Shown in pieces: positions 43,557 to 64,000 of a DNA stretch of 64,000 nucleotides. Each line of letters starts with the position of its first letter. Position 1 is the stretch's first letter. The notes below the pieces were generated by a model. That model was not told where the DNA came from. It ran no database searches and saw only the letters and a list, made by a program, of their open reading frames with translations. Source of the stretch: an uncultured virus (IMG/VR IMGVR_UViG_3300036987_000183) (Duplodnaviria; Heunggongvirae; Uroviricota; Caudoviricetes); IMG/VR virus record IMGVR_UViG_3300036987_000183, one strand, 5' to 3'. The position numbers and the translations under genes were made by a program.

Positions 43557-44620
43557 TGGCGCTACGACAACTAAAAAACCGCATTATCCGACAGAGAATA
43601 CAGAAGGAAGCAGCCTACCGCACGGAAACCCGTGACGCGATCCTATGGGATGTAATCGACAACAAACGATGCCGCGTCAAGATCCTGGGTAGTAACACCT
43701 TGCTTGTTGCAAACTACCCGGAGAACCTGGAGAGTAAACCAGCCTGGCTCAAGCCGGGAACAGCAGTCAAAATAAACCATACCGCGGGCAACCGGCACAT
43801 ATTGACGATCATTGGACTCGGTACCGCAATACCTCAGCCAACGGACAGTGCACTTCTGCCCACTCCACCGATTGGCGTCGACGCGGTATTGACCGGCCTG
43901 GAACTGTTCCCCTTTGAGACGCCGGGAATGTTCGTCTACGTCTCGACCGGTACCTTCCGCATCGGTGGCACGATATACACGGTTGAGCCGTCACTGATGA
44001 GCGAAAGCAACATCCTGAGTATGAACAGCGGCGCCCCGCTCGACACCACGGCAGAGGCGGTTGCGATCAGCGGTGCTCATGGCTCCCTGTATCGACTCGA
44101 CCTGATAGTGATCGGCGCTGACATGGTGATTCACACCACCAACGGCACGGCCGCCGCGACCCCGGTAGAGCCTGCCGTCCCTGCCGGGCACTTGCGGCTG
44201 GGTAATGTCCTGGTGCCTCCCGGCGTAACGACCATCCTGCAAAGCCACCTCAACCGCACATTCAGCGACCCGATAGCCTCGCAGTTGACATTGACAATAT
44301 CCGACAGTGACCTTGCATGGGGCGAAAATTCCTGCACCATCACCGCGAAAGTCCTCGACCAGTACGGACGCATCATAACCGGCACGAACTGGGGTGTTTA
44401 CGCAGAATTCCTGAGCGGCACCGGGACCATCGATGGACAAACAACATCGACCAGATACACCGGTACATCATCGAATCAGGCAATATTCACCTATGCCCGC
44501 AACACTGCGGCCGGAGAAAAGAGCCCGATGCTACAGTTCAGCCTGATACAAAACCCGAATTTGAAGATGATACAATTCATAACCGTCCGCGATTCCAGCG
44601 GCAACATCCTGATGGGATAG
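43556..44620 (+). CDS. Minor tail protein
   Basis: Translationally coupled; YRLDLIVI...PAVPAG..LG.V.VP motif seen in phage tail proteins. Confidence 0.55.
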   Translation: MALRQLKNRIIRQRIQKEAAYRTETRDAILWDVIDNKRCRVKILGSNTLLVANYPENLESKPAWLKPGTAVKINHTAGNRHILTIIGLGTAIPQPTDSALLPTPPIGVDAVLTGLELFPFETPGMFVYVSTGTFRIGGTIYTVEPSLMSESNILSMNSGAPLDTTAEAVAISGAHGSLYRLDLIVIGADMVIHTTNGTAAATPVEPAVPAGHLRLGNVLVPPGVTTILQSHLNRTFSDPIASQLTLTISDSDLAWGENSCTITAKVLDQYGRIITGTNWGVYAEFLSGTGTIDGQTTSTRYTGTSSNQAIFTYARNTAAGEKSPMLQFSLIQNPNLKMIQFITVRDSSGNILMG

Positions 44621-45600: not shown

Positions 45601-45676
45601 GCCACCTTAGCTCAGTTGGTAGAGCAATTGATTCGTAATCAATAGGTCACCAGTTCGACTCTGGTAGGTGGCTCCA
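45601..45676 (+). tRNA. tRNA-Thr(CGT); first 25 nt are the right att core
   Basis: Full cloverleaf: GCCACCT/AGGTGGC acceptor stem, ATTGA-TTCGTAA-TCAAT anticodon arm, GTTCGA T-loop, encoded CCA. Confidence 0.96.
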
Positions 45677-45683
45677 GAAAAAC

Positions 45684-45718
45684 AAGAGGTTAGCCCTCAC
45701 AGGCTAGCCTCTTTCTTT
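45684..45718 (+). terminator. tRNA terminator
   Basis: AAGAGGTTAGCC-CTCACA-GGCTAGCCTCTT-TCTTT. Confidence 0.75.
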
Positions 45719-45724
45719 ATGCTC

Positions 45725-46563
45725 TGACGCAGATATTGACGCAGATGTTATATAACGAATCAACTGCACTCCCTACACTGGTGCTTTTGCTTAGTCGCTG
45801 ACGCTTACACGCAAACCTCACCAGACGCATCCTCCCTTGTCCACACAAGCTCGGCTGAGTGAGCTAAGATGACCTTCTTCCCAATAGAAATGTATCCCAG
45901 ATAGCAACCTTACCCTGAGTATTTAGTCTTTATTTTTCATAGGCTATTACTATAATGTCTTATATATCATTAGAGTACGCAACTAGCTTCATATCCTATC
46001 GATATCATTATAAATATTGTCATATTCCATGTGCAGTATTGGTAACACGCTGAATAATAGACCATTTGCTATATATGGGTGTATGTGGAAGAAGTACCAC
46101 TATATATGGTTTTGTGGAGACGTCCGTTCAATCTCAATCTCGCCAAAAAAGAGAGGTATGGCGTGTGATCAGGTGGTTGTACCGGCAGAGAGGCAGCAAG
46201 TAAGAAAAGCAGATTGCGGTTTCAATTTCATTTTTATATATTACCCGAGGCAGAGGTATTAAGATATCAGACTTGAATTGACCAAGGTTCCGACCCCGCC
46301 CCTTGTTTCTGAGCTTTAAGAGGTTGTAGCTCTCCAAGGCATAGGTAGGTATGCTTCAGCTGGATATCTCCTGTCAGATAGCTAATATAGGTTGTGAGGT
46401 ATGGTAAATACTTTTTCGGTCACTCCAGATCATTTTGTAAAAGACCACAAAATGATCTTTCGTGATCCGAGCCAATAAAACCTTGTAGCTATTTGAAATG
46501 TAAGGGTTATCTGGTAGCAGTAGTGACGTTGATTTGCTGCGTTAAGCGTCAATATCTGCGTCA
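45725..46563. repeat. Pair of exact 18-bp inverted repeats (45725-45742 and 46546-46563)
   Basis: TGACGCAGATATTGACGC / GCGTCAATATCTGCGTCA. Confidence 0.85.
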
Positions 46564-46650
46564 AGTTTTGAGTTGGTTCTGTAACTAGCTGATTTATATA
46601 CCTAATAATACTCAGGCAATAGATTACTAATCAATTGCTTGAATTGAGGA

Positions 46651-47877
46651 GTGTCAAATATGCTTTTTGAGTACGGTAAAAGACTTGATCAATTAGATTA
46701 TGAAAGACTCTGGACTGAAAAGAATTGGTATTTCAGCGATGCCATTATCATGTTGACGAGTTATGAGATGGAGATTAGAGGCTTTTATAGCTTGGATGAC
46801 TCAAAGCTAACATATGCTAAGATCCATGGAAAGTATGAAAGCTATTTGTTAGAGAGTATGCTGGAAAAGTTGTTTGAGTATAATGACGGAGTAGATCCTG
46901 ATCTAAAGGCAAGTTATGCCTCAGAAATTTCTGATCTGACCACAGTCAATCCAAGCCGTTCAACTTTCAATAGGTATACATTCCTGAATTTCTTAGAAGC
47001 TAATTATCCAGGCAACATTGACATTGATAGGCTAAAGAGGTTTTTGTCAGGTGAAGAGGCTCCATTAAACACCAAACCTCATGCATCAAAGGTAGAGGAG
47101 CAAAGCCGCATAGTCGTTCAAACTACCAATAGTGATTTGCTGAATAATCAAGGAAGCGTAGATAGCTCTGGTATAACACACATCAGAGGAACTGGTGCAG
47201 ATGCATCACATACCTTAGGTGCAGCAGCTTTAGACGGTCATAAGTATTGTTTCGAAAGGATTACTCAGAGCTGGAAATTAAGGTTCATGGATATTGAGTT
47301 GAACGGCGTAAAAGATTTGGTTGGTATGGACTATATACAACTGCTGCTCAAAAACCCTGGGATTCCAATTGGTGTCTACGAGATACAATCCATGTTAAAT
47401 CCTATAGGGATAAAGTCTCCTGAAGGTAGAAGAAGGCCAGAGCTTGAGATTTTTGAAGGTCACACGACTGCTAAATTAGACAATAATAATACCTCCAAGA
47501 ATAAAGAGACCAGAAGCAGCAAATCCAAATCATTAGAGAACTTAAAAAGAAGGCTCCAAAAGTTGTCACAAGAAAGAAACGAGCTTGATTCAGACTATGA
47601 TCATATTGAAATTGAAGCAATTGATAACGAATACGCCAAGATAGAAGCCGCAGTGGATAATATCCTCTATGCAAAGAATGATGATCCAGAAATAAAAAAT
47701 AACCGTGACAAGGTTGCCAAAGCTATTAAAGCTGCCATAAAAAATATTAGTGGCCTCAAAACAACGGATGGCCAACCCAGTACACCTCTCAGCAACTTCT
47801 TGACCCAACATATTAAAACTGCAAGTGAATGTGTATACAACCCTCCAACAATAAACCCTCCTGATTGGTCATTCTAG
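46651..47877 (+). CDS. Hypothetical protein, possible winged-helix transcriptional activator
   Basis: 408-aa ORF; C-terminal GMDYIQLLLKNPG...RDKVAKAI...IKT..C.Y.P resembles island regulators. Confidence 0.55.
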   Translation: MSNMLFEYGKRLDQLDYERLWTEKNWYFSDAIIMLTSYEMEIRGFYSLDDSKLTYAKIHGKYESYLLESMLEKLFEYNDGVDPDLKASYASEISDLTTVNPSRSTFNRYTFLNFLEANYPGNIDIDRLKRFLSGEEAPLNTKPHASKVEEQSRIVVQTTNSDLLNNQGSVDSSGITHIRGTGADASHTLGAAALDGHKYCFERITQSWKLRFMDIELNGVKDLVGMDYIQLLLKNPGIPIGVYEIQSMLNPIGIKSPEGRRRPELEIFEGHTTAKLDNNNTSKNKETRSSKSKSLENLKRRLQKLSQERNELDSDYDHIEIEAIDNEYAKIEAAVDNILYAKNDDPEIKNNRDKVAKAIKAAIKNISGLKTTDGQPSTPLSNFLTQHIKTASECVYNPPTINPPDWSF

Positions 47878-48027
47878 TATTATCAATGCAAGCGACGACC
47901 TTAAAAGTCGTCAAACGAAAATATAACTCGTCCTTATAAGGTAGAGGCAGAGCGAAGCAAACGACAGCATCCATGGCAGTCTGTCAGTGCAAGCCGAACC
48001 TACTATACTTCTAAGGAGATAACACAG

Positions 48028-48423
48028 ATGGACAACAAACTCAAAACACTCACCTTCCCCCAGACCAGAAACGCATTACTGCTTTACGAAGCAGTCGCCA
48101 TTGCACTCGAAGACGCAGGGTTCATGGATGACAACAAGAAGATCAACAAGGCCATCGAGGCCCTGACGCCTAAGGACGATGTTACCAAGGTCCTGAAGCA
48201 GCTTCAGGGGTATGGCTACAGAGACTATCTCGTGGAAAAGGAAGCAGGCCGAGCCGTGGACTCTGCCGAGGCGAAAGCCGCTCACATCAAAGATTACGTC
48301 TCTGCCAGGTTCAAGAAGCACATGTCCAACCCGAAAACAGGTGTTAAGGCAACCAAGATGTATAACGATGCTTACCCTTCCGTCGTAGCTGAAAACCCTT
48401 CTGATGACACTCCAACGGCATAA
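48028..48423 (+). CDS. Hypothetical protein
   Basis: Strong TAAGGAG RBS; followed by GAGAGGGG/CCCCTCTC hairpin. Confidence 0.65.
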   Translation: MDNKLKTLTFPQTRNALLLYEAVAIALEDAGFMDDNKKINKAIEALTPKDDVTKVLKQLQGYGYRDYLVEKEAGRAVDSAEAKAAHIKDYVSARFKKHMSNPKTGVKATKMYNDAYPSVVAENPSDDTPTA

Positions 48424-48921
48424 GGTTGTCATTACTACATTGCCTACATAACCACCAACACTGAGAGGGGCTTGTCCCCTCTCTCTACCTATGATTAAGG
48501 AGAATAAAGTGAGAGAACTATTACCAAATACTTTGGCGAGCGTAGCAACGATGCTCTGATCATTCATAGAGATGGCAAGGACTGGGTATCGTCCAGAAGC
48601 CTTTGTGACCTCATGGGAGTGGTTGATGAGTATTATTTGGTATTCGACCAAAGAACGTGGCCTGAGGTGAACCTTACCGAGGAGGGCAAGTGTAAGTTCA
48701 CTGCTGAGGGAGCACATCTACCCTGTCCAATTTGGTTCGTTTCGGAGACTGGCTTCTGGAAGATAGTTGCAAAGTCAAACTCTTCCTGGCCAGCGAGGTT
48801 CCGTGCATCATTCCTGCCGACAGTATTCGAAGGTGGACTTTAAGTGTCCTGAAGTATCAATACTTTGAACGTGACGAAGGGGGGGAGGATTACGCTCTCC
48901 CCTTTTGTATACGGAGCCACC

Positions 48922-50595
48922 ATGAAACCAAAATACTCAGAATATGACAATTACAGATGGATCAATTGTAACCGATGGAGTACCGCTAAGGAGGTGGAGG
49001 CTTTAGTTGAATATCTGGTACAGGGGATTGCTTCAAGGAAGGGGCATGGCTACCGGATCAATATGACCGCCCTGGTGTTGGACCTCTACCAATCATATTT
49101 GTGCGACCCAGAACAGTATCTGGCCTATAGTCGGCGTGAAGTTAGTTATCTTAATGTCGGCAGTGACCACCCCTATATAAAGAATCACAACATCAAATAT
49201 CAGTACTTATTGAAGTGCGTCGATTACCTCTATGGTGATGGTTTGATTGAGAATCATGAAGGTGGCTATTTCCGCGATGATAAATCGAATAAGATTATCT
49301 CTTTTGCCAGTAGGATAAGACCGCTTAAAAGTCTTATGTCTGTGGTTGAGGAGTATGGGGTCACTCCTGAGATGATAGACGACTTTGCGCCACTGGATGT
49401 AATAATACTTAGGGGCAAAGAGGACGAAAAAACTGGTATAAAACCTGAGAAGAGGTACCCCAGGAACAAAGTTACGACCAGGATGGTGACGCTGATACGC
49501 CAGTACAACTCATTGCTTGAACGGTCTCAGATTGATGTTGACATTGAATGTCTAACGGATAAAGACCGTGATGAGCTGGTTAAGAAGCTGGCAGATATTG
49601 ACGGTCTTAAGCGCATTGTTCTGCGTTTGTCAAACAAATCAGTTTATCGGGTATTCAACAATGGCAGTATGGAACAAGGTGGCCGGTACTATAAGGCTTG
49701 GTGGATTAGTGCGCCTAGCACAATCAGAAAGTATATTACCATCCAGGGTGATCCTACTGTAGAGCTGGACTTCTCAGCCATGCACGTCCATTTGCTTTAT
49801 GCGGTCAAAGGTGTCAACTATGCTGATAAAAAGGAAGATGCCTATACCTTAGCTTCAGGAGCGCACACTCTTGCAAATCCAAAAGATGATCGGGCCTTAA
49901 ACAAGCTCATACTCTTGACAGCATTCAACGCTAAGTCGTCAGAGTCAGCAGCTTCAGCCGTTTATGATGATCTAAGGACAGAAGGCAAGCTATATCGGTA
50001 CAGCATTCAAAACCATGATCGTATCAATGCCAAGCTCTCACTGTTGAAACAAAAGCACCCTGTCATATCTGATATGATAGCTGATGACTACGGCCTAAAG
50101 CTCCAATACTATGATTCTAATGTGATCGAGAGGGTGATTGATCATTTTACCGCTATAGGAATCCCGGTGCTAACCGTTCATGATTCAGTTATATGTCAGG
50201 CTCAACATGAAGAGCTAGTTAGAAATGTGATGGTCCGATACTTCTATCAGGTAGTCGAAAATCTCTTAGCTCTCAGCATTAGACCAACACCTTTGTACTC
50301 AAGAGCAGGATTCATCCTAAGTCATCTAAATAGCATCAGGTCATATAGGACCGGAAGCATAAGGCTTCCGTTAGCGTCTAAGCTCAATATTGTGAATCCT
50401 TCAAGATATCATGGACGTATAACTGATACTATAGCTAACAGTTTGATCGTTAAGAGTACAGGTAGAGCCAATATTTGCTCTAAGAAGTGTAGTCATCATG
50501 CTAGACAAGAGCATAAACTAAAGTATATACCGAGCATAAAACTAGAGCTACAGGAGCTAACAGAAGCAGGAATCAGCATACTAAGGATTAAATGA
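48922..50595 (+). CDS. Family-A DNA polymerase/T7-RNAP-fold polymerase-like protein
   Basis: GGRYY, motif A ELDFSAMH, motif B-like RALNKLILLTAFN, LQYYDS, motif C LTVHDS. Confidence 0.55.
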   Translation: MKPKYSEYDNYRWINCNRWSTAKEVEALVEYLVQGIASRKGHGYRINMTALVLDLYQSYLCDPEQYLAYSRREVSYLNVGSDHPYIKNHNIKYQYLLKCVDYLYGDGLIENHEGGYFRDDKSNKIISFASRIRPLKSLMSVVEEYGVTPEMIDDFAPLDVIILRGKEDEKTGIKPEKRYPRNKVTTRMVTLIRQYNSLLERSQIDVDIECLTDKDRDELVKKLADIDGLKRIVLRLSNKSVYRVFNNGSMEQGGRYYKAWWISAPSTIRKYITIQGDPTVELDFSAMHVHLLYAVKGVNYADKKEDAYTLASGAHTLANPKDDRALNKLILLTAFNAKSSESAASAVYDDLRTEGKLYRYSIQNHDRINAKLSLLKQKHPVISDMIADDYGLKLQYYDSNVIERVIDHFTAIGIPVLTVHDSVICQAQHEELVRNVMVRYFYQVVENLLALSIRPTPLYSRAGFILSHLNSIRSYRTGSIRLPLASKLNIVNPSRYHGRITDTIANSLIVKSTGRANICSKKCSHHARQEHKLKYIPSIKLELQELTEAGISILRIK

Positions 50596-51366
50596 GCTCT
50601 AGAGGAGTAAGGCAGGCCTTACTCTGAACTATAGAGCTATATATACGATGATAATACAAGAGAGCAATCTACTGGATAATATAGAACTAGACACTAAGTC
50701 ACCCCCCCCTCTCTCTATAACTAGCGGAGATTCGCGCTAAACCACCGAATTTAAACGGAAAGCGACTAAACTCTGTTTTGGTTCGAGAGTCGCCGCCGGT
50801 TCGCGCCGGGCCGGTTCATCCCGCGCAAGAATAGAACCTGCTAGCCGGTGTTTACTTGAAGGTGGTAGTTCTAGTAGGTCGAGCAGTAAAGTCTGACTGT
50901 AAGCCTGATCTGAGCGCCTGACTAACGGAATTAAGGGTGAAAAGGTCCTGTCATTTCAAAAAAGACTTAACCTCTATATACTAAGTCTGAGCTAGATTTA
51001 AATTGAACGTCTAGTGTCACCACTCTCACCGAAATAATAGCAATCCATTCCGACCTATCCCCGACCCCGCTTTGATTCCGAGACCATCCCTACTTAGACC
51101 AGGAGCAACCATGTCATTGCGGCAATCATGGATCGTGAAGAGTTTTTTGAAAAGACTTGGTTGGAAGGTAATGCGGTAATGCTCAGTTTTCTTCCTGTAA
51201 ATAGCATTTCATGACCAGTTGCTAGATAAACCATTGTATATTATGGTGTTAGATGATTTCAGCCCAGGACCTGGGGGGAAGTGCACTTGCCACCAAAGAA
51301 AGTAACTCTACCATATGGTAAATAACATCTAATCATTTCTGTCAACAGTCAAAAACCTGCTAGATA

Positions 51367-51711
51367 TCATTTCACTCGCTTATTCACATTCCCTACCAGC
51401 TTCAAGATGCATCCCCGAAGCTCACCATTCTTGATTCTTCTATACGCCTGTAGTAGCTGATCCTCTTCACCTGTGAGTCTGACAGACTGGATAGGTGCCG
51501 TAGTAAAGAAATCTGATACCGATACCTTAAGAGCATTTGCTATCTGCTGGAACTTAAGGATATTAAGCGTAGTCTGACCATTCTCGTATTTCTGTATCTG
51601 CTGAAAAGTAACACCTACCATCTCAGCAAGCTTCTCTTGAGAAAGACCGGCTTGCTGCCTTAACAGCTTGATCTTCATACCCAAATCTATAGAGCTGACC
51701 ATATCACCCAT
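51367..51711 (-). CDS. XRE-family regulator
   Basis: LSQEKLAEMVGVTFQQIQKYENG. Confidence 0.88.
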   Translation of the reverse strand: MGDMVSSIDLGMKIKLLRQQAGLSQEKLAEMVGVTFQQIQKYENGQTTLNILKFQQIANALKVSVSDFFTTAPIQSVRLTGEEDQLLQAYRRIKNGELRGCILKLVGNVNKRVK

Positions 51712-52158
51712 AGCGCACCATCCTTGTCGGAAGATTACAACTATGAGTTGTGTAGCGCCATGGATTCACACTAGAAATGATATAACTTGAAAGTACAAAC
51801 TCTTGGTGGTATAAAAAGCAGGTTATAAATCCATCTTAATATAGTTGAATGGCAACTTTATGGGAAATTTGCTGACCTGCTAAACAGGGACCAGAAAGCC
51901 CACGTCGATAGCATGAAGCTATAGGTTTCGGCTTTTTCTATATGGGATGTCAGATAAAGTGTCATGGGCCTTAAGGGGTTAGTGTGCGCGACCTTATAAA
52001 CGGAATTGGTTGTTTAATTGCTTTCGTAGCTATTGTTATGGCTATTGCCAGTATACCCCTCTTAGGACCAATACCAGTTACTGTCGTATTTTTCATAGGC
52101 TGTGCGTTGTATAGATCTAGGTGATGTGTCCTAAAATCAATCAAATGTGGAGGAGAGC

Positions 52159-53034
52159 ATGGCTTTAATATTATGTGGCGAGTGTGGCAAAACCATATCT
52201 GACAAAGCACATTCATGTCCTGGATGTGGTTACCCATTGCAACCGTCAGATGCAAATCGAACCATGCAAATCGATTTAAAGACTTTTAGCAAGGAACAAT
52301 TATGGGCCAAAGCGTACAATATGCAGTACAAATACAAAGACAAAAAGGCTGATATCCCAACCGCTATTGAAATATATAATTATATCATTGAACATTTTAA
52401 TGGTAGTAAAGAATCTGATAATGCGAAAGTTCAGTTAAATATATTAACAACACAATCCCCAAGAACACAGACTGTGGCTAGTGATAGTGCACCTGAAATC
52501 AGCAAATCTATAGATATTCAAAAAAACAACCAAAGCCTCAAAGAATATTACAAAATACTCGGTCTTGAAGAAAGTGCAAGCATTGAAGAAGTAACGTCTG
52601 CATATAATGAATTATCAGACAAGTGGAATCCCATAAAATATGAAGTCCATGAACGGAGCATGTTATCCTTTGCCGAGCATGAGTTTAAGGAAATTCATGA
52701 TGCATATAATAGAATAAACCAACAGCTAACAGGAGACTATCAAGGAAGTAATATTGTAGAAGATGAAGTAGATAACAATGATAGTAAAAGCAGTAGCCCT
52801 ATATTTGCATTAGTGTCAGTAGTAACAGCAATATTTGCAATAATTATTTTGTATCAATTATTTTATGGAGGCCATGGCGGCCTAGGATCACAATATTATA
52901 AAGGGAATATTGATGCTTTTGTTAATGACAATGTCGAAAGGGTAAACTCGATCTCAACTGTTATTAAAATATTTGCAGTTCTTTTCGGAATGTGGTTTGT
53001 AATGTTAATTTCAAGAATTGTCTGTAAGAAATAA
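52159..53034 (+). CDS. Zinc-ribbon plus J-like domain membrane protein
   Basis: CGECG...CPGCG; YYKILGL...AY..L..KWNP (degenerate HPD); C-terminal TM helices. Confidence 0.7.
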   Translation: MALILCGECGKTISDKAHSCPGCGYPLQPSDANRTMQIDLKTFSKEQLWAKAYNMQYKYKDKKADIPTAIEIYNYIIEHFNGSKESDNAKVQLNILTTQSPRTQTVASDSAPEISKSIDIQKNNQSLKEYYKILGLEESASIEEVTSAYNELSDKWNPIKYEVHERSMLSFAEHEFKEIHDAYNRINQQLTGDYQGSNIVEDEVDNNDSKSSSPIFALVSVVTAIFAIIILYQLFYGGHGGLGSQYYKGNIDAFVNDNVERVNSISTVIKIFAVLFGMWFVMLISRIVCKK

Positions 53035-53303
53035 TGCTAATTGTTATATTAACATATTGATTGCTAGAACACTCGGATTAAACAACTGACAACTTTAAAG
53101 ATAATGGGGAGGGTATGGGTGCAGCGCTTGGAACGATATTCGGTAATTGGTTGTTTGGAAGAGCATCTATAGTTATCTGTGTTATTGCGCTTGTAATGGT
53201 CTTAGGAAATAAATGATGGTTATTGCTGTATTGATTTATATTGTCATTTGAAAAGTCTTAATAAGACAAACTTAGGTCATAGAATAAACTATTGGGGGTA
53301 CTC

Positions 53304-54107
53304 ATGCTTAAAACAGAAATCACTACGATTACTTTAATTGTTGCAATTCTTACCTGTTGTGGGTGCGATGGTTCTGGAGTATTTGGAAATAGTGTGAAAT
53401 CCACACTCGCCAAAGAAATGCCAAAATATGACCACGATATAGTTAAAATAAAAACTGTTGAACCAGTAGTAGGTTATGATGATTGTTATAAAATAAGCGC
53501 TGAAGTGACATCATCCGCTATGAGGATAGGTGGTGTACCAATGCAGGATTATGTTGTGAAACTCAAAGACAATAAAATTGAAAAAGGGACTTATATAACT
53601 GGTGGTCTACTTGAAACAACCTCAGAACTTGTATGCAAGGATAGCGACAAAAGTGTCATGCCTCAAGAGCCATCTTCAACTTCACACAAAGAGCTAAACT
53701 ATAGCATTAAGTTTCCTGATGGGTGGAAAGTTGAGAGACCGAATAGCGAAGTTGATTCCATAGTTGCATATAGTAAAGAACTAGAATCCATGTACACAGT
53801 GAGTAGATTGGGCAGATATAGTGACGCACAAGATATTTCTTTAGCCAGAGCACAGGCATTAGGAGACAATAGATTAGAAAATATGCGACATACATACCCA
53901 GATGCAAAATTGCGTAGTGCCGATGTTATTCGAAATTTAAACGGACGTGAGGCAATGATATTAACATATCAACTTAACACAAGATATAATGAAATAAATA
54001 TCTTAGTGCCTACTCGGGAGTATACATATCAAATAAGTTTTATAGGACCGATGAGTGTATTAAAAGCTACTTCCAATACAGTGCAAAGTTTTAAAATACT
54101 ACAATAA
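53304..54107 (+). CDS. Putative lipoprotein with PsbP-like C-terminus
   Basis: Lipobox-like CCGC; YSIKFPDGW...VQSFKI. Confidence 0.55.
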   Translation: MLKTEITTITLIVAILTCCGCDGSGVFGNSVKSTLAKEMPKYDHDIVKIKTVEPVVGYDDCYKISAEVTSSAMRIGGVPMQDYVVKLKDNKIEKGTYITGGLLETTSELVCKDSDKSVMPQEPSSTSHKELNYSIKFPDGWKVERPNSEVDSIVAYSKELESMYTVSRLGRYSDAQDISLARAQALGDNRLENMRHTYPDAKLRSADVIRNLNGREAMILTYQLNTRYNEINILVPTREYTYQISFIGPMSVLKATSNTVQSFKILQ

Positions 54108-54483
54108 CTAAGCAACATAGCCTGTATTTAGCCAGTTAAGGCAAGATATTTTAGTATATATCACATACATCATTCTAATAGCATTTATGCGTCTACTAAA
54201 AAGCCTATAACCTATCATATGATTCCTGTATGTTGTGCAAGGGAGGAACCATCATGATCATCCAAGAGCCAGACTCTCAATAGTCTGGCTTTATCAATTT
54301 GAAAGGAGGTGAATTAGTAGAACTGTAATAACCCTTCCCATCAATCTAATCCGTAACATCGATCTACCATCGACAATCCAAGCACCACAACCTAGCAGTA
54401 TATCCGTAAAGGGATATCTGCGTCTTGTAACCTACGTTACAAAAAACTGAAAAATATATGACCATCAAGGTCTTTATCTAAAG

Positions 54484-54508
54484 TGCAATATTGCTATCCA
54501 ATATTGCA
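54484..54508. promoter_or_regulatory. Palindromic operator-like site
   Basis: TGCAATATTG-CTATC-CAATATTGCA upstream of the response regulator. Confidence 0.45.
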
Positions 54509-54644
54509 AGGAGAAAACAAGCCCTACTTAAGCCTAGATGTCGAGCATGTTTTTGTCTTGACACAATTTAACATGGTAATTATCATTATTCATAATATAC
54601 TTGTTGACGATATCTGGTCAGAATACCTATGACGGAGTAACCGG

Positions 54645-55319
54645 ATGACAATTCTTGTGGTAGAAGACGATAAAAAAATAGCAAATTTTATAAAGCGTGG
54701 CCTTGAGGCAGAGGAATATAAGGTTGAAGTTGTTCATAATGGCGAGAAAGGTCTAGAATTAGCTCTGGAGCGGTCATATGGTCTAATTATACTCGATGTA
54801 ATGTTAACAAAAAAAGATGGCCTCACCCTGCTAAGGGAGCTAAGGGAAAAAAGGTACTTTACTCCTGTGTTGATTCTGTCGGGGAAGACTATGAAGGAAG
54901 ATAAAGTCGCAGGACTTGATGCTGGGGCAGATGATTATATGACTAAACCATTTGCCTTTTCTGAGCTAATAGCACGCGTCAAGGCTCTTCAGCGTAGGAC
55001 GGAACACGAAAGAGGTGCTAAAATACATTTCTCAGATCTCTGTCTCGATCCTGTTACTCATCAAGTATGGTATAAAGAAAAAGAGCTTGAGCTTGCCGCA
55101 AGGGAGTACGAACTTCTTGAATACTTCATGCGCAACCCAAACCAAGTTCTCACTTTGGATATGATCTCCGATCAAATTTGGAGAGGCGAGATTAGTAAAT
55201 ATACAAATATCATAGCAGTATACGCCAACTATCTTAGGAAGAAACTACGTAAAGTAGATTCAAAAGAGCTTATCCATACTGTGCGCAGTGTTGGTTATAT
55301 CATGAAAGAAGTTGCTTAA
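54645..55319 (+). CDS. OmpR-family response regulator (orphan)
   Basis: ILVVEDD, IILDVML, GADDYMTKPF, IHTVRSVGY. Confidence 0.92.
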   Translation: MTILVVEDDKKIANFIKRGLEAEEYKVEVVHNGEKGLELALERSYGLIILDVMLTKKDGLTLLRELREKRYFTPVLILSGKTMKEDKVAGLDAGADDYMTKPFAFSELIARVKALQRRTEHERGAKIHFSDLCLDPVTHQVWYKEKELELAAREYELLEYFMRNPNQVLTLDMISDQIWRGEISKYTNIIAVYANYLRKKLRKVDSKELIHTVRSVGYIMKEVA

Positions 55320-55371
55320 GGAAGTACGGGTTGAAGAGCTGGACCATATTTTAAATCGAGAGGACTCCAAA

Positions 55372-55860
55372 ATGGCAACATTAATTGAATTAGCAGCATC
55401 ACTAGTAGAGTCACATGCTTCCACTACTGCAATGACCACTGAAGAGCTCCTGAAGGAAATCGAACTGGTCTACAATGCCTTGAAGAACCTTGAGGCAGGG
55501 GTAGTGGCTCCTGTTGTTACAGAAGCGAACGTACCTACCATCACGGCTAAGCAATCAATTAAGCCAAATGAGGTAATATGCTTGATCTGCGGTAAGGGAG
55601 GTATGCAGACCCTTGCTCGTCACCTAAATACCGCCCACAATATGAAGCCAGGAGAATATAGGAAGCAGTTTGGTATTTCTTCCAAGCAACCTTTAGTTGC
55701 CAAGAAGTTCTCAGAGTCCAGAAGGAAAACTGCCCTGGAAAAAGATCTTGCTGGAAATCTCGCTAAGGCCAGAGAGGTAAGAATGGCAAATATAGCAGCT
55801 GCAAAAGTAGCTGGGGCAAAAAAGGCACCGCAATCTAAGAAGGCAGTTAAGAAGGATTAG
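55372..55860 (+). CDS. MucR/Ros-family regulator
   Basis: CLICGK...LARHLNTAH..PGEYRKQFG...PLVA. Confidence 0.88.
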   Translation: MATLIELAASLVESHASTTAMTTEELLKEIELVYNALKNLEAGVVAPVVTEANVPTITAKQSIKPNEVICLICGKGGMQTLARHLNTAHNMKPGEYRKQFGISSKQPLVAKKFSESRRKTALEKDLAGNLAKAREVRMANIAAAKVAGAKKAPQSKKAVKKD

Positions 55861-56039
55861 GCCTTAGAAAGGTATAAAAGCTAGTTCTCTTAATCTTGTC
55901 ATTTGGATGTGCAAGTGTTGGATTGGTAGCTCTTGACAAATATATTAGACTTGAGCAAAGACTATCTGACTATAACACGAAATTAAAGGAATCGACATAT
56001 GGTATTGGAACCGAGCCAAGTGCGACACAATCCCTACTG

Positions 56040-56456
56040 TTAAAATAGCAGAAATATAAAAAATGATGTGAGAACTACGACTAAAAGACTGAAAAGTGGA
56101 GCTATTATTCCACCGATAGGACATTTTATGAGAGGTTTACCTATTGATTTTCCTATAGGTATCAATAAGATAAAGCCTGTTAAAGGGAAATACCATTCAA
56201 GTTTCCAAAGGCTTGCAGCAAATATTGATATGACTGCAAGTATAGAAACTAAAGCCAAGATTTCGTATATCATTCCACCAATACCGCTAACAAATATAAG
56301 TGGTCTATATAAAATTATAGCTTCTGGATTTGGTTTTCCTAAATATTTAACAAATTTTCCATCTTCAAATCGGATAATACCATGTCCATAATCATAATTA
56401 ATGGAGGCAATGCCGTAACAAACGCAGCAGATAAAAAATATAACTTCAAGGGTCAT
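56040..56456 (-). CDS. Membrane hypothetical protein
   Basis: Multiple hydrophobic segments. Confidence 0.55.
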   Translation of the reverse strand: MTLEVIFFICCVCYGIASINYDYGHGIIRFEDGKFVKYLGKPNPEAIILYRPLIFVSGIGGMIYEILALVSILAVISIFAASLWKLEWYFPLTGFILLIPIGKSIGKPLIKCPIGGIIAPLFSLLVVVLTSFFIFLLF

Positions 56457-57934
56457 ATAGATACCTAATTCATGTGACGTTGATTGTAATTATTCCATTT
56501 CAACACTAATTGCTCCATTCGAAGGGAAGTCAGTACATTTGTCATTGTTCCGCATGCCTGCGAAAAGTTGCTCTACAGGGCGGGTATTGTTAACTACTGA
56601 ACATGCTACCCCGCAACCTCGATAATACTATTGGAATAAATAATTTCAAGAGTAAATATTTATAAAGGTTTTGAGATGCTATGCTTTCTGATGTAACCAG
56701 AGATGTACGGTGTTGAGTAGGTTTACCACGGGTAATTGTGGGGCCAAGGCTGCATCCTTTGAAATATTCATTACTTTCAAGACCCCAGCATATTTGTGAC
56801 CTATTCTGTCGCAACCATATTTTATCCTCCTCACCATGATATCCATATGCTGTTCACAACCTAAACCGGATTACCAGGAGCTTGCCCCAGAAGAAAGAAA
56901 GGTATTCTGTCGGCTAGTTTATCTTCTGCGAAAAAGAGGATATTCGATTAAGGATGCTCAGGATATGGCATATCGGAAGATTCTGGAGGATAGTATCTCG
57001 TTTGATTTAGGTAAGTAGCCTTGTATGGAAGCGCCGGCTTGCGGTCTGTTAAATTGTTTCTCATGGCGGAATAGGGCCAAATCTGATATGTATTGTCCGC
57101 GTTTAAGAATTCTTGAGGAGAGAAGCGGTGGGCGAATATCCAGTCGAAGTTCTGGAGGAAATCAACCGGCTCAAGGCACAACATCTTAAAGAACAAATAC
57201 AAAGGCATTTAAGGTCGAGTGACCGCTGAAAAGGAGCATTTTCTGATGATCAGTTTTATAGGGTTCGTACTTTTCATGATTTTTCTCTTCAAGTACACAA
57301 AGATAGACAGATTCTATCTTTGGGGCTTTGTTATCATGTCTTTACTTGGTATGATAGGTATTAACTTTGGAATGATAGGAGCTTTTGTTGCGTTATTGGC
57401 ATGTAAGGTAGTTAAAGATTTTCGCACTTTGGACAAAACAGGTTAGCCAGGCCAACCTGCAGGGTTCCAGTAAACTTTTGCGGATAGTATGGATGGAATG
57501 ATTTTTTTCGCTCTGCTTTAGATCTCACCAAGTTTCCTGGATCGCCGTTGGTACATTACCACCACGGACTCGCCCCGAATATTTGCGACAGCGGACTGTT
57601 CGCATATCATCTGCTTTTACTCTAAGGCCGGTTTTGCAGACAACTTGCTTGCTTTACCTCTAAAAGGGTCGGTGCATGTGACCACATATTAAGTACGCGA
57701 TAAAAACTATTCTACTAAAAGTCCTATACAGAATCCAGATTCTTAAAATGTAGACAGTAACCAGATTGAATATATAATACTCTTTTTGCATTATTCCCGT
57801 ACCCCACCCCCTCAATATCATGTGCCTACCAGGCACCCAGCAAGGATCTACTCGCCTGTATGACCATCAACATACCCAATATAGACACCGGCCATTAAGA
57901 AGCTGAAGCGGATAGACATATACGGAAGGTAAAC

Positions 57935-57961
57935 ATTAGAAAACTGGCAATTTCTAATAAA
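57935..57961 (+). repeat. 27-bp repeat copy 1 (copy 2 at 62337-62363)
   Basis: ATTAGAAAACTGGCAATTTC(T/G)AATAAA, one mismatch between copies. Confidence 0.85.
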
Positions 57962-58001
57962 TCTTGATAAGTAATAATATCATCGTCTTGCTGGAGCTTC
58001 C

Positions 58002-58979
58002 ATGACCTACGAGCAGCTTGTTGAGTTCCTTTCCTCAAAAATGAAGATGTCCCATATTTATCAGCCACTCCTTATCAGGAGCCTGGTAGATGCTGGTGGA
58101 TCTGCAACCATTCGCCAATTAGCTCAATTCTTCCTTTCCCAAGACGAAAGTCAACTTCTCTACTACGAAAAACGCATCAAGGAAATGCCTCTCAAGGTTC
58201 TTTCAAAACATGGAGTAGCATCAGCAGATGGAGAGTTAGTGCATCTGAATGTTAAGAAGTTATCCTTGGAGCAGAAAGCACATATCAGAGGTCTCTGCGA
58301 ACAAAAGCTCCAGGAGTTCGTCCAGAAAAGGGGTTTGGGTATTTGGGATTACAGGTTACTGGAAACAGATCCGATACCTGACAGTATACGATATCAGGTG
58401 CTTAAGGAGTCTGGTGGAAGGTGTGCTCTGTGTGGTATTACCAAGAAGGAATCACCAATCGACGTTGACCATATCATTCCCAGGAGCAGGGGCGGCACTC
58501 ACAACAAATCAAACCTTCAAGCCTTATGCATAAAGTGCAATAGAAGCAAAGGGAATAAAGATAAAACGGACTTCAGAAATGACCTTCCTGAGGGCAAGAT
58601 AGAAGATTGCATATTCTGCTCTGATGAGATCCTTGAAAGAAAAATAGCTGAAAATGGTCCTGTATTCGCCATAGAAGATAAATTTCCAGTTACCTCTAAC
58701 CACCTACTCGTAATCCCCAAAAGACATACTCCAGATTACTTCTCGATGACCTCCCTTGAACGTCAATGTGCCGAAGAACTCTTGAGATACCTTAAAAACC
58801 ATGTAGCAAGTCAAGATAAGGCTGTTACTGGCTTCAACATAGGTACGAATTGTGGCGAGGTTGCGGGCCAATCAGTTATGCATGCCCATGTCCACCTAAT
58901 ACCCAGGAGAGCTGGAGACATGGATAAACCCAAAGGTGGAGTCCGGCATGTAATTCCAAGCAAAGGTTACTACAAATGA
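58002..58979 (+). CDS. HNH endonuclease-HIT hydrolase fusion
   Basis: CALCG..VDHIIPRSRGG..NLQALCIKCN; CIFC...GQSVMHAHVHLIPR. Confidence 0.9.
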   Translation: MTYEQLVEFLSSKMKMSHIYQPLLIRSLVDAGGSATIRQLAQFFLSQDESQLLYYEKRIKEMPLKVLSKHGVASADGELVHLNVKKLSLEQKAHIRGLCEQKLQEFVQKRGLGIWDYRLLETDPIPDSIRYQVLKESGGRCALCGITKKESPIDVDHIIPRSRGGTHNKSNLQALCIKCNRSKGNKDKTDFRNDLPEGKIEDCIFCSDEILERKIAENGPVFAIEDKFPVTSNHLLVIPKRHTPDYFSMTSLERQCAEELLRYLKNHVASQDKAVTGFNIGTNCGEVAGQSVMHAHVHLIPRRAGDMDKPKGGVRHVIPSKGYYK

Positions 58980-59022
58980 GATAGAAAAGTGGATATGTTA
59001 ATAGTGAAAGGTGTGATCGACT

Positions 59023-59352
59023 ATGAAATTCAGGAAAGACCTTCCAGGTTATGTTCCACCTAAGCAGGTAGAATTGACTGTTAAGAGAAAAGACCAAAAG
59101 AAAGAAAAGTGGTCTGAGGTTGCTAATATCAACAGTAGTAATATCAGTTGCAATGTGAATATATCATTCAATGGCAGCAAAACCGTAATATCATATAAAG
59201 CATTACGTCAATATAATAGTGTTGATGATGATGGTGATTTTAAAAATACAATATATTCAGTAGAAATAATACTAGACAAGTACATTATGTCAGATGTTAT
59301 AGAACATGCTGTTAATTCTGGAATGTATACTGTCAAGTTAGCACCAAAATAA
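59023..59352 (+). CDS. Hypothetical protein
   Basis: ORF with RBS inside the defence-like cluster. Confidence 0.5.
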   Translation: MKFRKDLPGYVPPKQVELTVKRKDQKKEKWSEVANINSSNISCNVNISFNGSKTVISYKALRQYNSVDDDGDFKNTIYSVEIILDKYIMSDVIEHAVNSGMYTVKLAPK

Positions 59353-59443
59353 GCAAATATAATATAATATAATATTATAGTACAAGTAGGTGCTGAAAAT
59401 TTACTAATAAGTACTGTTATTGTGGCCATATTTGGAGGTGTAG

Positions 59444-60352
59444 ATGGCAGTTCCAGATTTCCAATCATTCTTCAAGCCCATACTTGATGTGGCAGCTGAT
59501 AATGGAGAGCATTCTGTAAAAGATGCAAGAACTATTATCAAATCTGTAATGGATCTGTCTGAAGAAGACCTCCGTGATATGCTCCCTAGTGGTACGCAGT
59601 CAAAGTTTGATAACAGGATCGCGTGGGCAATTAGCTATCTCGTTCAAGCGAACGTGTTGGAAAGACCCAAAAGAGCGTTTTTCAAGATTACAGATCGTGG
59701 TCGAGAGTTGCATAATAAAAAACACGCAAGAATTGATGTCGCTATCCTCAAAGCCTATCCTGAGTTCCTAGAGTTCCATACTTCTAAAGTAACCACACCC
59801 GTCACTCCCATAGAAATTGATACATCAGTAAGTGCCACTCCCGATGAAATCCTTCAACAGGCTTATCAAAGCATGCGGAATGATCTAGCCAGCGAGATAC
59901 TTGAGAAGATAAAGATCAACTCTCCAGGGTACTTTGAAATGTTGGTTGTTGATCTGTTGGTAGCTATGGGTTATGGAGGGTCAAGAACGGATGCAGGACA
60001 GTCACTTGGGCGGAGTGGTGATGAAGGTATAGATGGTATCATCAAAGAAGATCGTCTGGGGCTTGATGTGATTTACTTGCAGGCCAAAAGATGGGCTAGC
60101 ACAGTAGGTCGTCCTGAGATCCAGAGATTTGTAGGAGCGTTACATGGCAAGCGAGCAAAAAAAGGCGTATTCATTACTACAGGCAAGTTTTCAAATGATG
60201 CCTTGGATTATGTAGCGACCATTGATCCTAAAGTTGTCCTGATAGACGGTAGGACCTTGGTGGAATATATGATTGATTTCAACCTGGGAGTCTCTATAGC
60301 AACAACATATGAAATTAAACGCCTAGATTCAGATTATTTCTCAGAGGAGTAG
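59444..60352 (+). CDS. mrr: Mrr-family type IV restriction endonuclease
   Basis: MAVPDFQ, NRIAWA, DEGIDG, YLQAKRW, GVFITT, LIDG. Confidence 0.92.
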   Translation: MAVPDFQSFFKPILDVAADNGEHSVKDARTIIKSVMDLSEEDLRDMLPSGTQSKFDNRIAWAISYLVQANVLERPKRAFFKITDRGRELHNKKHARIDVAILKAYPEFLEFHTSKVTTPVTPIEIDTSVSATPDEILQQAYQSMRNDLASEILEKIKINSPGYFEMLVVDLLVAMGYGGSRTDAGQSLGRSGDEGIDGIIKEDRLGLDVIYLQAKRWASTVGRPEIQRFVGALHGKRAKKGVFITTGKFSNDALDYVATIDPKVVLIDGRTLVEYMIDFNLGVSIATTYEIKRLDSDYFSEE

Positions 60353-60573
60353 TATATTGTTTTAAAGAGGGCCATGATGTTTTGGAAAAGCCCAAGGACT
60401 ACAGTTTCATATTTTGGCTAAGGAGCGGCCAACAACCACCTTTATAGATAATAAATGTTGAGAAGTGATCGTACTTTAGCCGCAGTTCTGCTTACACATG
60501 AATCAGTTTAAATGCCTACGATTGGATACATATAGCGATACAGATCGAAATATTGATATTTTTGGAGGGATAG

Positions 60574-62052
60574 ATGAATGTCAGGGAGTGGCTTCCAGAA
60601 TTTAAAGTGTCAGCCGAAAGCGATACAGAGTTACTTAAGTACTTTCTTAAAACATCTTACGTAGACGATATTCTTAACACGTCAAAATGGATGGTCCTAG
60701 GCCGCAAAGGTACTGGTAAAACAGCAATTTATGAATATATCAAAAGCGGGACAAGAGAATCGTTAGGCGGATTTGAACCAATAGCCCTCAATTTCAAAGA
60801 CTATCCTTGGCCAATTCACAAACTGTACAAGGAAGGGATGGAGGGAGAAATTACAGCTTATCAGAAAAGTTGGCATTACCTAGTTATAGTTCAAGCTATA
60901 TCTAAGCTAATTGAAATACGTGAAAAGAGCTCTGAGTACTTATCAAGTGAATTGCAAGCAGCCAAAAAAATAATAAACTTTATATACGGTAGTCCGTTTC
61001 CTTCTCTAATGGAAGTTATTAAATCAAAGTTGTTTCGAATAAATAGCTTGTCTTTACCAAATTTAGCAGCAGCAGATATAAATATGTCAGCAGGAGAAAT
61101 CTCATTTGATGATGTATCTGCTGATTCACAATTAAAATCGAAACTTAAAACTAATGCGTTTGTCTTGCTGCAGTACTTAGAAACAATACTCTTACAAAAC
61201 ATTGGCGAGACGCAAATTTTGGTTGCTTTAGACCAGTTAGACGAAAATTGGTTGCAAAACGAAATTGAAGAATATAGTAAAATATTGATCAATCTTATAA
61301 ATGTTTGTCAGCACATAAACAATGCCGAAAGATTTAAAAATCTAAAGATTATTCTTTTTCTAAGGTTAGATATCTATGAAACATTGAGGTTTAATGACAA
61401 AAACAAGATTTTTCAGGATAGCGCTGTCGAAATAAGGTGGGACAATGATAGTTTAAATGAAATGTTTTTCGAAAGGGTTAAGAAATATAAGCCTGCTGAA
61501 CTTCAATTAGATATGAATTTGAAAAGCAATGCTATTTTTGAAGCAAAGTTTGTAAGACATGGAGCCACACCATTCAAGCACATTTTAAGGAGATCATTTT
61601 ATCGACCACGTGATATTGTTGTTTATATGAATAAAATTAGAGAAGCCCATAAAGGTACTAAGAGCGGATTGTATTCATCCAAGGATTTATATAATGCCGA
61701 AAAAGATGTGTCAAAAAGTTTGTACAGTGAACTTATTGATGAATGGTCAAATCAAAAGCCTGATTTAGATACAATTCTTTCTGTATTACAGAACATCGGC
61801 ACACAAACCTTCAAATATGAAGACTTTGTTGAGAAATATAGTAATTCCAACTCAGATTGTGATAAGGCTGATATCAATGATGCCCTTTTATTCTTGTTCC
61901 TTAATTCTGTTATTGGTCAAAAAATTACTGCCAACTGGGAATATTTTTGCACTAATCCGTACATGCAAATAGACAATGCTAAGCAGTTTCATGTTAATTC
62001 TGGCCTTAAAGACAGGCTCATGCTAACAGAGAGCAGATCTTCACGAGCTTAA
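60574..62052 (+). CDS. P-loop ATPase (Sll1717-like)
   Basis: SAESD, GRKGTGKT, LDQLDE, RPRD motifs. Confidence 0.8.
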   Translation: MNVREWLPEFKVSAESDTELLKYFLKTSYVDDILNTSKWMVLGRKGTGKTAIYEYIKSGTRESLGGFEPIALNFKDYPWPIHKLYKEGMEGEITAYQKSWHYLVIVQAISKLIEIREKSSEYLSSELQAAKKIINFIYGSPFPSLMEVIKSKLFRINSLSLPNLAAADINMSAGEISFDDVSADSQLKSKLKTNAFVLLQYLETILLQNIGETQILVALDQLDENWLQNEIEEYSKILINLINVCQHINNAERFKNLKIILFLRLDIYETLRFNDKNKIFQDSAVEIRWDNDSLNEMFFERVKKYKPAELQLDMNLKSNAIFEAKFVRHGATPFKHILRRSFYRPRDIVVYMNKIREAHKGTKSGLYSSKDLYNAEKDVSKSLYSELIDEWSNQKPDLDTILSVLQNIGTQTFKYEDFVEKYSNSNSDCDKADINDALLFLFLNSVIGQKITANWEYFCTNPYMQIDNAKQFHVNSGLKDRLMLTESRSSRA

Positions 62053-62336
62053 TATTATTATTACTAACTCTCCGCTTATAAGTTAAAAGGCATTAGTGGT
62101 GTTATTAGTTCAAAAATAATACGTTTGCTAGTTACAAAACCCATAATTATCTCCGAGGTCTGATTCATATATTGAAAGCCAAATAGCTCCAAGAACCGAC
62201 CCCTACCCCCTAAAGGATCAGTACACCTACCAGATAACATTGAATTCTGTTTACCGACAGTATGATCTTTCCTTCCAACGTTCGCAAGGTGATAAATCCA
62301 TAATTTCAAGTAGATACATGCTTTAAAAAAACAATT

Positions 62337-62363
62337 ATTAGAAAACTGGCAATTTCGAATAAA
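62337..62363 (+). repeat. 27-bp repeat copy 2
   Basis: Matches 57935-57961. Confidence 0.85.
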
Positions 62364-62444
62364 CTTTGCTATATGATTATGAAAAATCTGTATGAAAGTC
62401 ACGGCTTAAAAAGTAATCTAACCTAATAATGTTACGACGTCACT

Positions 62445-63611: not shown

Positions 63612-64000
63612 GTGAAATCTAAAGTGATGCTAATAATCTGTACCATTATTATGCCACTATTAGTAAAAATAATTTTTGGGTCAAAGATTAATGAATACAT
63701 ATACCACTCTGGGTTATATGGCTGGGTACATGATAATAACGGATTGTTTGCTATTTGTGTGTTTATACTTGTCTTTGTTATAGTGATTGTATTAGCGATA
63801 ATATTTTTTTTCCAAGCAGCTGGTTTGGCTGATGAATTTATTGAATCCGGTGTTGATCTTGGTAAAGAAGTATGGAAAAAAAATAATATGAACGATAAAA
63901 TATTGCATGGAATAGAAAAAACATATTCTGCGGCACATGGCGCTTATAAAGAAATTATGACAATAATGACAGCAGATAATATTCGCAAATGGCTAAAATC
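63612..64000 (+). CDS. Partial membrane protein (runs off window)
   Basis: GGAGG RBS, GTG start, hydrophobic segments. Confidence 0.5.
   Translation, partial: MKSKVMLIICTIIMPLLVKIIFGSKINEYIYHSGLYGWVHDNNGLFAICVFILVFVIVIVLAIIFFFQAAGLADEFIESGVDLGKEVWKKNNMNDKILHGIEKTYSAAHGAYKEIMTIMTADNIRKWLK

Follow-up and report, generated by a model that had tools for sequence, protein, structure and literature searches.

A 64,000-nucleotide (nt) stretch of DNA recorded from an uncultured virus (IMG/VR IMGVR_UViG_3300036987_000183), here called the window, holds an island next to a tRNA gene, and within that island lies a gene for a 557-amino-acid (aa) polymerase of the divPolA2 type. We report that a short, oriented and conserved site stands beside this gene in the window and in many of its relatives. 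The enzyme family was known beforehand by name; what is new here is the site. By analogy with ColE2 Rep, we propose, at a probability of roughly 55%, that the enzyme would work as a site-specific primase, or initiator, of an integrative element. The features concerned are these:

48922–50595, plus strand: gene for the 557-aa divPolA2-type enzyme (ATG at 48922, stop at 50595; PHROG 4756 match, E 2e-55)
Within the enzyme: winged helix at about residues 20–150 and Pol A/T7 RNA polymerase (RNAP) core at residues 156–516 (AlphaFold model and structure matches)
50716–50740, minus strand: candidate cognate site, made up of the clade box TTAGCGCGAATC, a 6-nt spacer, the core AGTTATA and a purine run

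A conserved site points into the polymerase gene

The window site lies 120 nt past the stop codon and points back into the polymerase gene. A preliminary description of the window had singled out the downstream non-coding DNA as a region to try as a replicon, naming no such site; that DNA does hold the best origin or start candidate, at 50716–50740. Bacterial relatives came from GTDB genomes, in which 345 of 357 candidate stretches matched the polymerase family, and the best 80 of the 345 were fetched (L numbers denote fetched loci and G numbers genomes). Ten related loci align with the same two-part site, 25 to 128 nt past the stop codon and with a spacer of 6 nt (7 in two loci), and the letters around it differ among them. 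Family-wide, the core reads AGT(A/T)AT(G/A) and points into the gene.

We counted 6-mers and 7-mers in 88 bacterial regions, each spanning positions −30 to +300 relative to the stop codon. The most enriched 6-mer was CATTAC, present in 39 of the 88 compared with 6.2 in shuffles, and CATTACT was the top 7-mer (29 versus 2.3). Within the first 150 nt past the gene, the word occurs on the plus strand in 31 of 81 loci and on the opposite strand in 6; within the last 150 nt before the gene, it occurs on the opposite strand in 20 of 83 loci versus 0. In the AGTAATG reading, the word is directed into the gene at both positions. Across 84 loci it peaks only in the two flanking bins, the next downstream bin holding 8 and the others 0 to 7. 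Sites are confined to the downstream side in 31 loci and to the upstream side in 21 of the 84.

A matrix built on 84 training loci was then frozen and applied to held-out loci, namely the 52 of 64 new loci that had an intact gene and full flanks (three are identical to training loci). It scored 17 of 52 versus 0, and 12 of 46 versus 0 where the protein was below 60% identity to any training protein. The site is real but not universal, since the matrix reaches 6 of 38 held-out loci (versus 0) below 45% identity; distant clades may use other words. No site was found in L138 or in the more distant L010, L012 and L134, and the sequences of L084 and L005 end too soon. In L001, L085 and L126 the matrix chose wrong sites or none, and the clade pattern found sites there.

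Six distant members (L171, L174, L183, L194, L215 and L218) have possible variant downstream sites below the matrix cut-off, consisting of a CTTA box, a core such as AGTAGTG or ATTGATG and a purine run. By eye, the phage loci L092, L093, L096, L097 and L101 carry a palindromic word, GGCTACAGCC...GTGGCC, within about 150 nt upstream, with thin k-mer support (3–4 of 21). In L128 (9205–11282), an insertion of two genes, resembling an insertion sequence, interrupts the polymerase gene, and the downstream site is intact.

The box changes with the protein. For the 12 letters before the core, likeness rises from 0.38 to 0.87 with protein similarity. At middle distances the box is more alike than the letters after the core (0.51 versus 0.35 and 0.64 versus 0.44, from pairs that are not independent). 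The tree used was a midpoint-rooted FastTree tree of 84 rows.

Second copies of the site are present in 12 of 59 loci, leaving a single copy in 47 of 59 at that stringency. With a looser match, second copies are convergent in L047, L049 and L066, tandem in L028, L058 and L065, and inside the coding sequence of an integrase in L042, L049 and L075. Four loci, L029 (9296–9540 and 11297–11541), L044, L061 and L064, have site copies facing inward within near-perfect inverted repeats of 244–345 base pairs (bp) around the polymerase gene. Two further candidates were set aside. An IHF-like site beside the start site scored 17 versus 17 of 59, and another match to GAATC-N6-core at 44578–44595, which lies in a prophage gene and is without the TTAGC part, was taken as chance.

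The enzyme has a predicted Pol A/T7-RNAP fold

The 557-aa open reading frame (ORF) is real and intact, and counted from an upstream TTG it is 576 aa. The preliminary description had read in it five polymerase motifs and no exonuclease domain, and both observations stand. GGRYY (residues 253–257), ELDFSAMH (281–288), R324-x3-K328, LQYYDS (394–399) and VHDS (419–422) follow one another in the stated order, and the AlphaFold model shows no exonuclease domain. An alignment of 111 of the 116 database matches (5 short fragments were omitted) showed R243, F245, G254, R255, D283, Y308, K328, H420 and D421 to be invariant, and R324 to be kept in at least 90%. D283 was also present in 92 of 92 database proteins, in 96 of 100 bacterial loci (the other 4 being gaps) and in 25 of 26 viral loci.

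The protein falls in no Pfam family, and two PDB sequence searches gave 0 matches and a single chance match, respectively. The AlphaFold model has a predicted local distance difference test score (pLDDT) of 90 and a predicted TM score (pTM) of 0.85. Its core (residues 156–516) matches apicoplast Pol A (Z 12.9, root mean square deviation 4.5, 263 residues aligned), yeast mitochondrial RNAP (Z 12.0, 4.0, 261 residues), Klenow fragment (Z 11.9) and T7 RNAP (Z 10.7, 284 residues). Many winged-helix proteins align to residues 20–150, with Z up to 7.0. Two model helices, 183–201 and 213–225, precede the Arg hairpin, a position that suggests a thumb. A right-hand Pol A/T7-RNAP fold, as the preliminary description had supposed, is thus predicted, and both Asp residues (D283 and D421) are conserved.

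The motifs were aligned manually with those of T7 RNAP and E. coli Pol I, taken from named records. Profile comparison with single T7 RNAP or Pol I sequences gave no significant alignment, so the correspondences rest on fold, motif order and hand alignment. The enzyme mixes the two patterns. GR-x-Y (here GRYY), D398 placed three residues past Q395, and HDS are T7-RNAP-like, and the start of motif A (D-F/Y-S) and Q395 are Pol I-like. At the H-x-x-D motif of T7 RNAP, position 395 is Q or M instead of H, and motif A reads D-F/Y-S rather than D-G-S. The motif-B tyrosine of T7 RNAP (Y639) corresponds to N336. Motif B and the pre-C motif are 67 residues apart, compared with 153 in T7 RNAP, whose specificity loop sits in the fingers, with the motif-B tyrosine as a further RNAP feature. 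The position of Pol I E710 is H288 in 87 of 92 database proteins, and that of F762 is L332 (L or N in the family). In Pol I, E710 and F762 are the residues that exclude ribonucleotides (PMC7581432).

The family is divPolA2 and probably overlaps TV-Pol

The preliminary description had called the element undescribed, which no longer holds for its polymerase. By sequence the enzyme belongs to divPolA2, a family named in phages in 2024 (Yutin et al., Virol J 21:200; PMC11348598); the family profile matches the representative AUR84708 at E 4.6e-30 over MG592441:25469–26503. At E values no higher than 0.001, the family counts 12,255 cluster representatives. Of 401 genomes sampled within the order to which the Roseicyclus locus L035 belongs, 51 carry a member, and 279 phage records match the polymerase, including 113 Rheinheimera phages. 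The gp100 protein of ICP1 (gene at 53.1–54.8 kb) is a homologue.

The phage members are described as having an intact palm, no exonuclease, an extra N-terminal domain and Z of about 12 to mitochondrial RNAP, all of which our enzyme shares. They coexist with a regular PolB, and repair or RNA polymerase activity was proposed for them (PMC11348598). That paper covers phage members, its section on divPolA2 gives no DNA site, and there the N-terminal domain is called unrelated to known domains; the member described here sits on a chromosomal integrative element, and we add the winged-helix assignment and the cognate site.

An older description probably overlaps this family. Iyer, Abhiman and Aravind (2008, PMC2579912) described TV-Pol, a subset of which has an N-terminal domain and lies beside integrases, resolvases and Bro-N genes, predicted it to prime, and included Geobacter and Rhodobacterales in the species list. 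Most TV-Pol features fit our enzyme, namely the minimal core with thumb, Arg hairpin, two-Asp palm and RxxxK fingers but no nuclease, and the integrase, resolvase and Bro-N neighbours. The TV-Pol N-terminal domain (TV-PolN), however, was predicted to be all-helical, whereas ours is a winged helix with a beta wing; there is no D5 helicase here, and the main text of the 2008 paper names no site. Ma-LMM01, which holds a TV-Pol and was the sole named member compared, gave nothing below E 0.15 when two profiles were run with filtering switched off.

In the literature, with subscription journals thinly covered, we found no bench test of this polymerase branch, and the name divPolA2 appeared only in the original paper and its preprint. 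Nor did we find a published cognate site on integrative elements, the supplements of the 2008 and 2024 papers being outside that scope.

A putative site-specific primase

In the reading we favor, the winged helix would bind the clade-specific box, the A/T-rich core AGT(A/T)AT(G/A) would be opened, and the enzyme would start, with no primer, a short purine-led chain toward the gene. The chain would more likely be RNA than DNA, at about 60:40. Host polymerase and helicase would then extend it and so copy the element, probably after excision. The proposed likeness is to ColE2 Rep, an origin-binding primase beside its own origin, and to RSF1010 RepB' with ssiA/ssiB (PMC4538821); these element-specific primases act on their own site, and host polymerases elongate. 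The second copies seen here, several of them convergent and some within integrase coding sequence, recall the ssiA/ssiB pair. Those primases, in contrast, have the archaeo-eukaryotic primase fold and serve plasmids, whereas here a Pol A/T7 fold is found on integrative elements and phages; the likeness is one of working mode, and the enzyme does not belong to their group.

Several observations speak for priming. Downstream-only sites outnumber upstream-only ones and face antisense to the gene, which fits an origin better than a gene promoter. Because sites are antisense, convergent or within coding sequence, priming suits them better than gene expression, and because the enzyme is small and has neither proofreading nor a helicase, a primer maker suits it better than a replicase. 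The replacement of E710 and F762 by H288 and L332, together with the three T7-RNAP-like motif features, we also count for a primase. The theta origin that ICP1 uses early was placed "near the 60kb position" by mapping (10.1101/639039), a loose fit to the position of gp100.

Other observations weigh against this reading. The matrix finds 59 sites toward the gene and 3 away in its 84 training loci, a circular count, and no site in 25 of the 84; among the held-out loci below 45% identity, 32 of 38 likewise have none. Viral members show no enrichment beside the gene (4 versus 5 of 24). The loci are related by descent, so that counts are not independent. Box likeness correlates about equally with the core domain and with the winged helix (rho 0.33 versus 0.36), and so does not single out the winged helix as the part that recognizes the box. 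Upstream sites, 40–150 nt before the gene, resemble ordinary self-promoters, and the bulky H288 could itself exclude ribonucleotides. Finally, the 64-kb window gave no integrase match.

The enzyme might instead be a minimal single-subunit RNAP with its own promoter, transcribing the genes of the element or an antisense control RNA and priming no replication. We consider this unlikely. In its favor are the RNAP-like motif letters and the presence among the top fold matches of mitochondrial RNAP and T7 RNAP, the latter aligned from residue 57. A two-part site with a purine start recalls T7 promoters, and the loci with a site only upstream of the gene fit a promoter. In T7, phi1.1A and phi1.1B, whose region is the primary origin, lie 26 and 101 nt after gene 1, likewise downstream. 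Most sites here are antisense, however, with extra copies convergent or inside coding sequence, and they do not recur ahead of cargo genes, most loci having a single copy. The T7 enzyme is also larger (883 aa), has a different domain in place of the winged helix, and does not share the motif-B Asn; the short stretch between motif B and the pre-C motif leaves no room for a T7-type specificity loop; and the site here faces back into the gene. An RNA polymerase is among the options raised for divPolA2 (PMC11348598).

A self-priming DNA polymerase that copies the element alone with deoxynucleoside triphosphates (dNTPs), the Pol A equivalent of CCPol or of piPolB from pipolins, seems to us improbable. 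In its favor, the top fold matches are Pol A enzymes, and the start of motif A and Q395 are Pol I-like; the inverted repeats with inward sites in L029, L044, L061 and L064 would suit it as well. The layout of tRNA, integrase, polymerase and defense genes recalls pipolins (PMC5695915, PMC11551731), which are integrative elements with defense cargo and a polymerase that needs, or is believed to need, no primer to start, although piPolB is of family B. CCPol-MP of SCCmec (PMC7581432, 10.1101/2022.12.02.518924), also a primer-free polymerase and hallmark of an integrative element, primes using dNTPs; it keeps E710 and F762, however, requires a partner resembling single-stranded DNA-binding protein (SSB) and adjoins a helicase. 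Our enzyme has no proofreading domain and a short thumb, has lost E710, F762 and the motif-B tyrosine (N336), and has no SSB-like or helicase partner recurring in the neighbor clusters, and its phage relatives live alongside a regular PolB (PMC11348598).

Least probable is a defense or repair enzyme that binds the site for autoregulation, unrelated to replication: the islands do bear defense cargo and repair is a named option in PMC11348598, but PADLOC gave no match for the enzyme, no effector gene recurs in the neighbor clusters, no gene beside the integrase is as constant as the polymerase, and it occurs in lytic phages.

Returning to the site-specific primase, we would extend it to the whole family only tentatively, at slightly under even odds. 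A very large class of minimal replicons would then comprise one winged-helix/Pol A-fold enzyme of 50–65 kDa with its own site of about 20 bp, made up of the variable box and the AGTAATG core, at which strands would start de novo. The box variants would be specificity groups, and several elements could therefore coexist in one genome. L124 and L130 both lie in G028, and their boxes differ.

The polymerase gene belongs to a tRNA-integrating element

The following features mark the island and its left end:

45601–45676, plus strand: tRNA-Thr(CGT), the integration target (ARAGORN)
About 45631–45677: likely attachment (att) core and left island end, formed by the 3' part of the tRNA (repeat unitig in run X4)
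45725–45746, plus strand: TGACGC tandem repeat, a putative integrase arm-type site that recurs in relatives
46546–46563 and 46619–46639, minus strand: att-like inverted copies of the TGACGC repeat and of the tRNA anticodon arm, respectively
51367–64000: island cargo, with an XRE regulator, a Zn-ribbon/DnaJ protein, a response regulator, Ros/MucR, an HNH-HIT protein and Mrr

X4 is a sequencing run that may be the source sample. It has a 47-nt repeat unitig over 45631–45677 with a depth of 256, compared with 62–79 alongside. Since an X4 contig of 20,414 nt begins at 45648, inside the tRNA, and extends 2,061 nt past 64000, the element in tRNA-Thr probably measures about 20 kb, with its right end about 2 kb past the window. 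No excision or inversion joint was listed for the X4 contigs, which are unreliable for showing such joints, and the depth of the island (62) was not above that of the prophage side (79), a comparison for which the contigs are likewise unreliable.

An integrase may lie just outside the window, because in L001 and L124/125, which likewise have TGACGC repeats by the tRNA, one lies at the far end. In L001 and L124 this repeat stands about 45–50 nt past the tRNA, and the L001 element has it a second time close to its far end. A tyrosine-integrase cluster is present in 53 of the 80 loci and in 40 of the 46 loci of at least 15 kb, and Pfam named two integrases of relatives; a resolvase cluster is present in 8 of 80. 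tRNA genes occur in 43 of the 80 loci (42 of 60 in one set and 1 of 20, mostly short loci, in the other), and relatives occupy many different tRNAs. In six loci the same tRNA is present twice, bounding elements of 6.6–12 kb. The integrase linkage and tRNA ends bear out the earlier suggestion that the polymerase is the core gene of an integrative element.

The tRNA anticodon arm and TGACGC repeat (45623–45746) recur inverted about 1 kb off, at 46546–46639, att-like repeats that the preliminary description does not mention, and L124 has the same inverted TGACGC pair. No integrase gene lies between the tRNA and these inverted repeats. The gene-free segment could be invertible, or it could be a remnant from which a tRNA-proximal integrase has been lost. 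In L029 and L044, the inverted repeat around the polymerase gene takes in the tRNA's 3' end, and the integrase segment is oppositely oriented between these two loci. Larger arrangements also occur. L132 (8862–11622) and L133, both in G040, are identical inverted units of 2,761 bp with the polymerase gene, 17 kb apart, and L103 (1–11746), a viral contig record, has three near-identical tandem units bearing the polymerase.

No helicase cluster recurs among the 120 largest neighbor clusters of the 80 loci; the sole recurring Walker A cluster among them resembles an ABC-type ATPase. The preliminary description had also raised the possibility of a satellite exploiting the adjacent prophage, and this finds no support: relatives sit at many tRNAs, lytic phages carry the gene themselves, and nothing links the island to the prophage. 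The nearest virus record is without the island, the prophage to the left carries a serine recombinase itself, and no capsid, packaging or helper-exploiting genes were recognized in the 45 largest clusters of the 80 loci, as judged from the beginnings of their sequences. The element may be mobilized in trans.

The region 451–45430 seems to be a whole prophage, and Pfam identifies a large serine recombinase in it. Within it, the ORFs at 32593–32997 and 33185–34306 resemble an Avd-type protein and a reverse transcriptase of a diversity-generating retroelement. The stretch 58002–62052 has defense-like cargo, comprising Mrr, the HNH-HIT fusion (74% identical to L012 at the DNA level) and a protein of 492 aa whose start is Walker A-like and which weakly matches PADLOC.

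Upstream genes and other non-coding features

The genes ahead of the polymerase vary between loci. In the window, they and the remaining non-coding features are as follows:

46414–46473: conserved imperfect palindrome, about 55 nt long, upstream of the operon
46660–47877, plus strand: 405-aa gene for a possible DNA-binding regulator, with a C-terminal OmpR-like domain containing a coiled-coil insert
48028–48423, plus strand: optional 131-aa gene, with homologues ahead of the polymerase gene in L001 and L084
About 48509–48843, plus strand: Bro-N-like gene, frameshifted near its 5' end
50605–50624: 8-bp hairpin GAGTAAGG/CCTTACTC directly after the polymerase stop codon, a possible terminator or pause on either strand

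The 405-aa gene had been put down as a putative activator. A weak OmpR-type DNA-binding match (Z 7.2–7.3, model pTM 0.36) agrees with that, but the gene is exchangeable in its slot and, judged from the sequences, is no core partner. It has no Pfam match above the cut-off and 11 database matches, itself included; among the fetched loci it is homologous only in L138 and L004, beyond the identical L083. The small 131-aa gene does have the strong ribosome-binding site ascribed to it (GGAG, 9 nt ahead of the ATG), and ORF maps of L126 and L128 show no such ORF ahead of the polymerase gene. The Bro-N-like gene, likewise missing from the preliminary description, has a Pfam Bro-N match at E 0.016, below the cut-off, and a PHROG anti-repressor match at E 0.003; its homologues in L084 and L085 are intact, at 103 aa and 62–64% identity.

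Other elements of the preliminary description fared less evenly. The palindrome GACGAC-N7-GTCGTC is present at 47894–47912, but such a repeat arises in 17% of 500 shuffles of that intergenic stretch and the palindrome itself is unmatched in related loci, and we rejected it as a signal. The hairpin GAGTAAGG/CCTTACTC is also present, at a borderline level (4% of 120-nt shuffles and 15% of 771-nt shuffles); judged by eye, a closely similar one follows the stop codon in L085, and other stems do so in L002, L003, L006 and L124. As for the richness in CTAG and TAG claimed for the downstream DNA, across 771 nt CTAG is mildly enriched (9 versus 4.5 expected, reached in 2% of shuffles) but TAG is unenriched (34% of shuffles). 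The word CCCCTCTCTCTA at 48476, considered as a second site, belongs to a stem after the small gene.

The palindromic block at 46414–46473, absent from the preliminary description, is 92% identical to L126, 87% to L128 and 75% to L004. Folding gives a DNA hairpin for it in the window and in L126, L128, L004 and L005, with differing stem letters, and a weak one in L084. Candidate roles are a second priming site, a resolution site or an operator. Non-coding DNA at 46120–46343 is 76% conserved in L003, 66–68% in L084 and more weakly in L128 and L130, and has no Rfam match. The Rfam scan gave the tRNA alone above the cut-off, the sigma-70 scan (11 versus 15.4) and terminator scan (4 versus 4.8) were at chance level, and folding of the regions between stop codon and site was mostly weak (z +1.2 to −2.9).

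Significance

A defined, oriented site is the substrate that has been lacking for a bench test of the TV-Pol and divPolA2 predictions. One protein and one 25-bp sequence can decide whether the enzyme is a primase, an RNA polymerase or a self-priming DNA polymerase. Because its motifs combine letters of Pol I with letters of T7 RNAP, the answer bears on the origin of RNA synthesis in this fold. As a tool, too, a small site-specific initiator could be useful. If the minimal-replicon class is true, it would be the smallest case of promoter-style origin priming, like that of T7 and mitochondria, spread across integrative elements and lytic phages.

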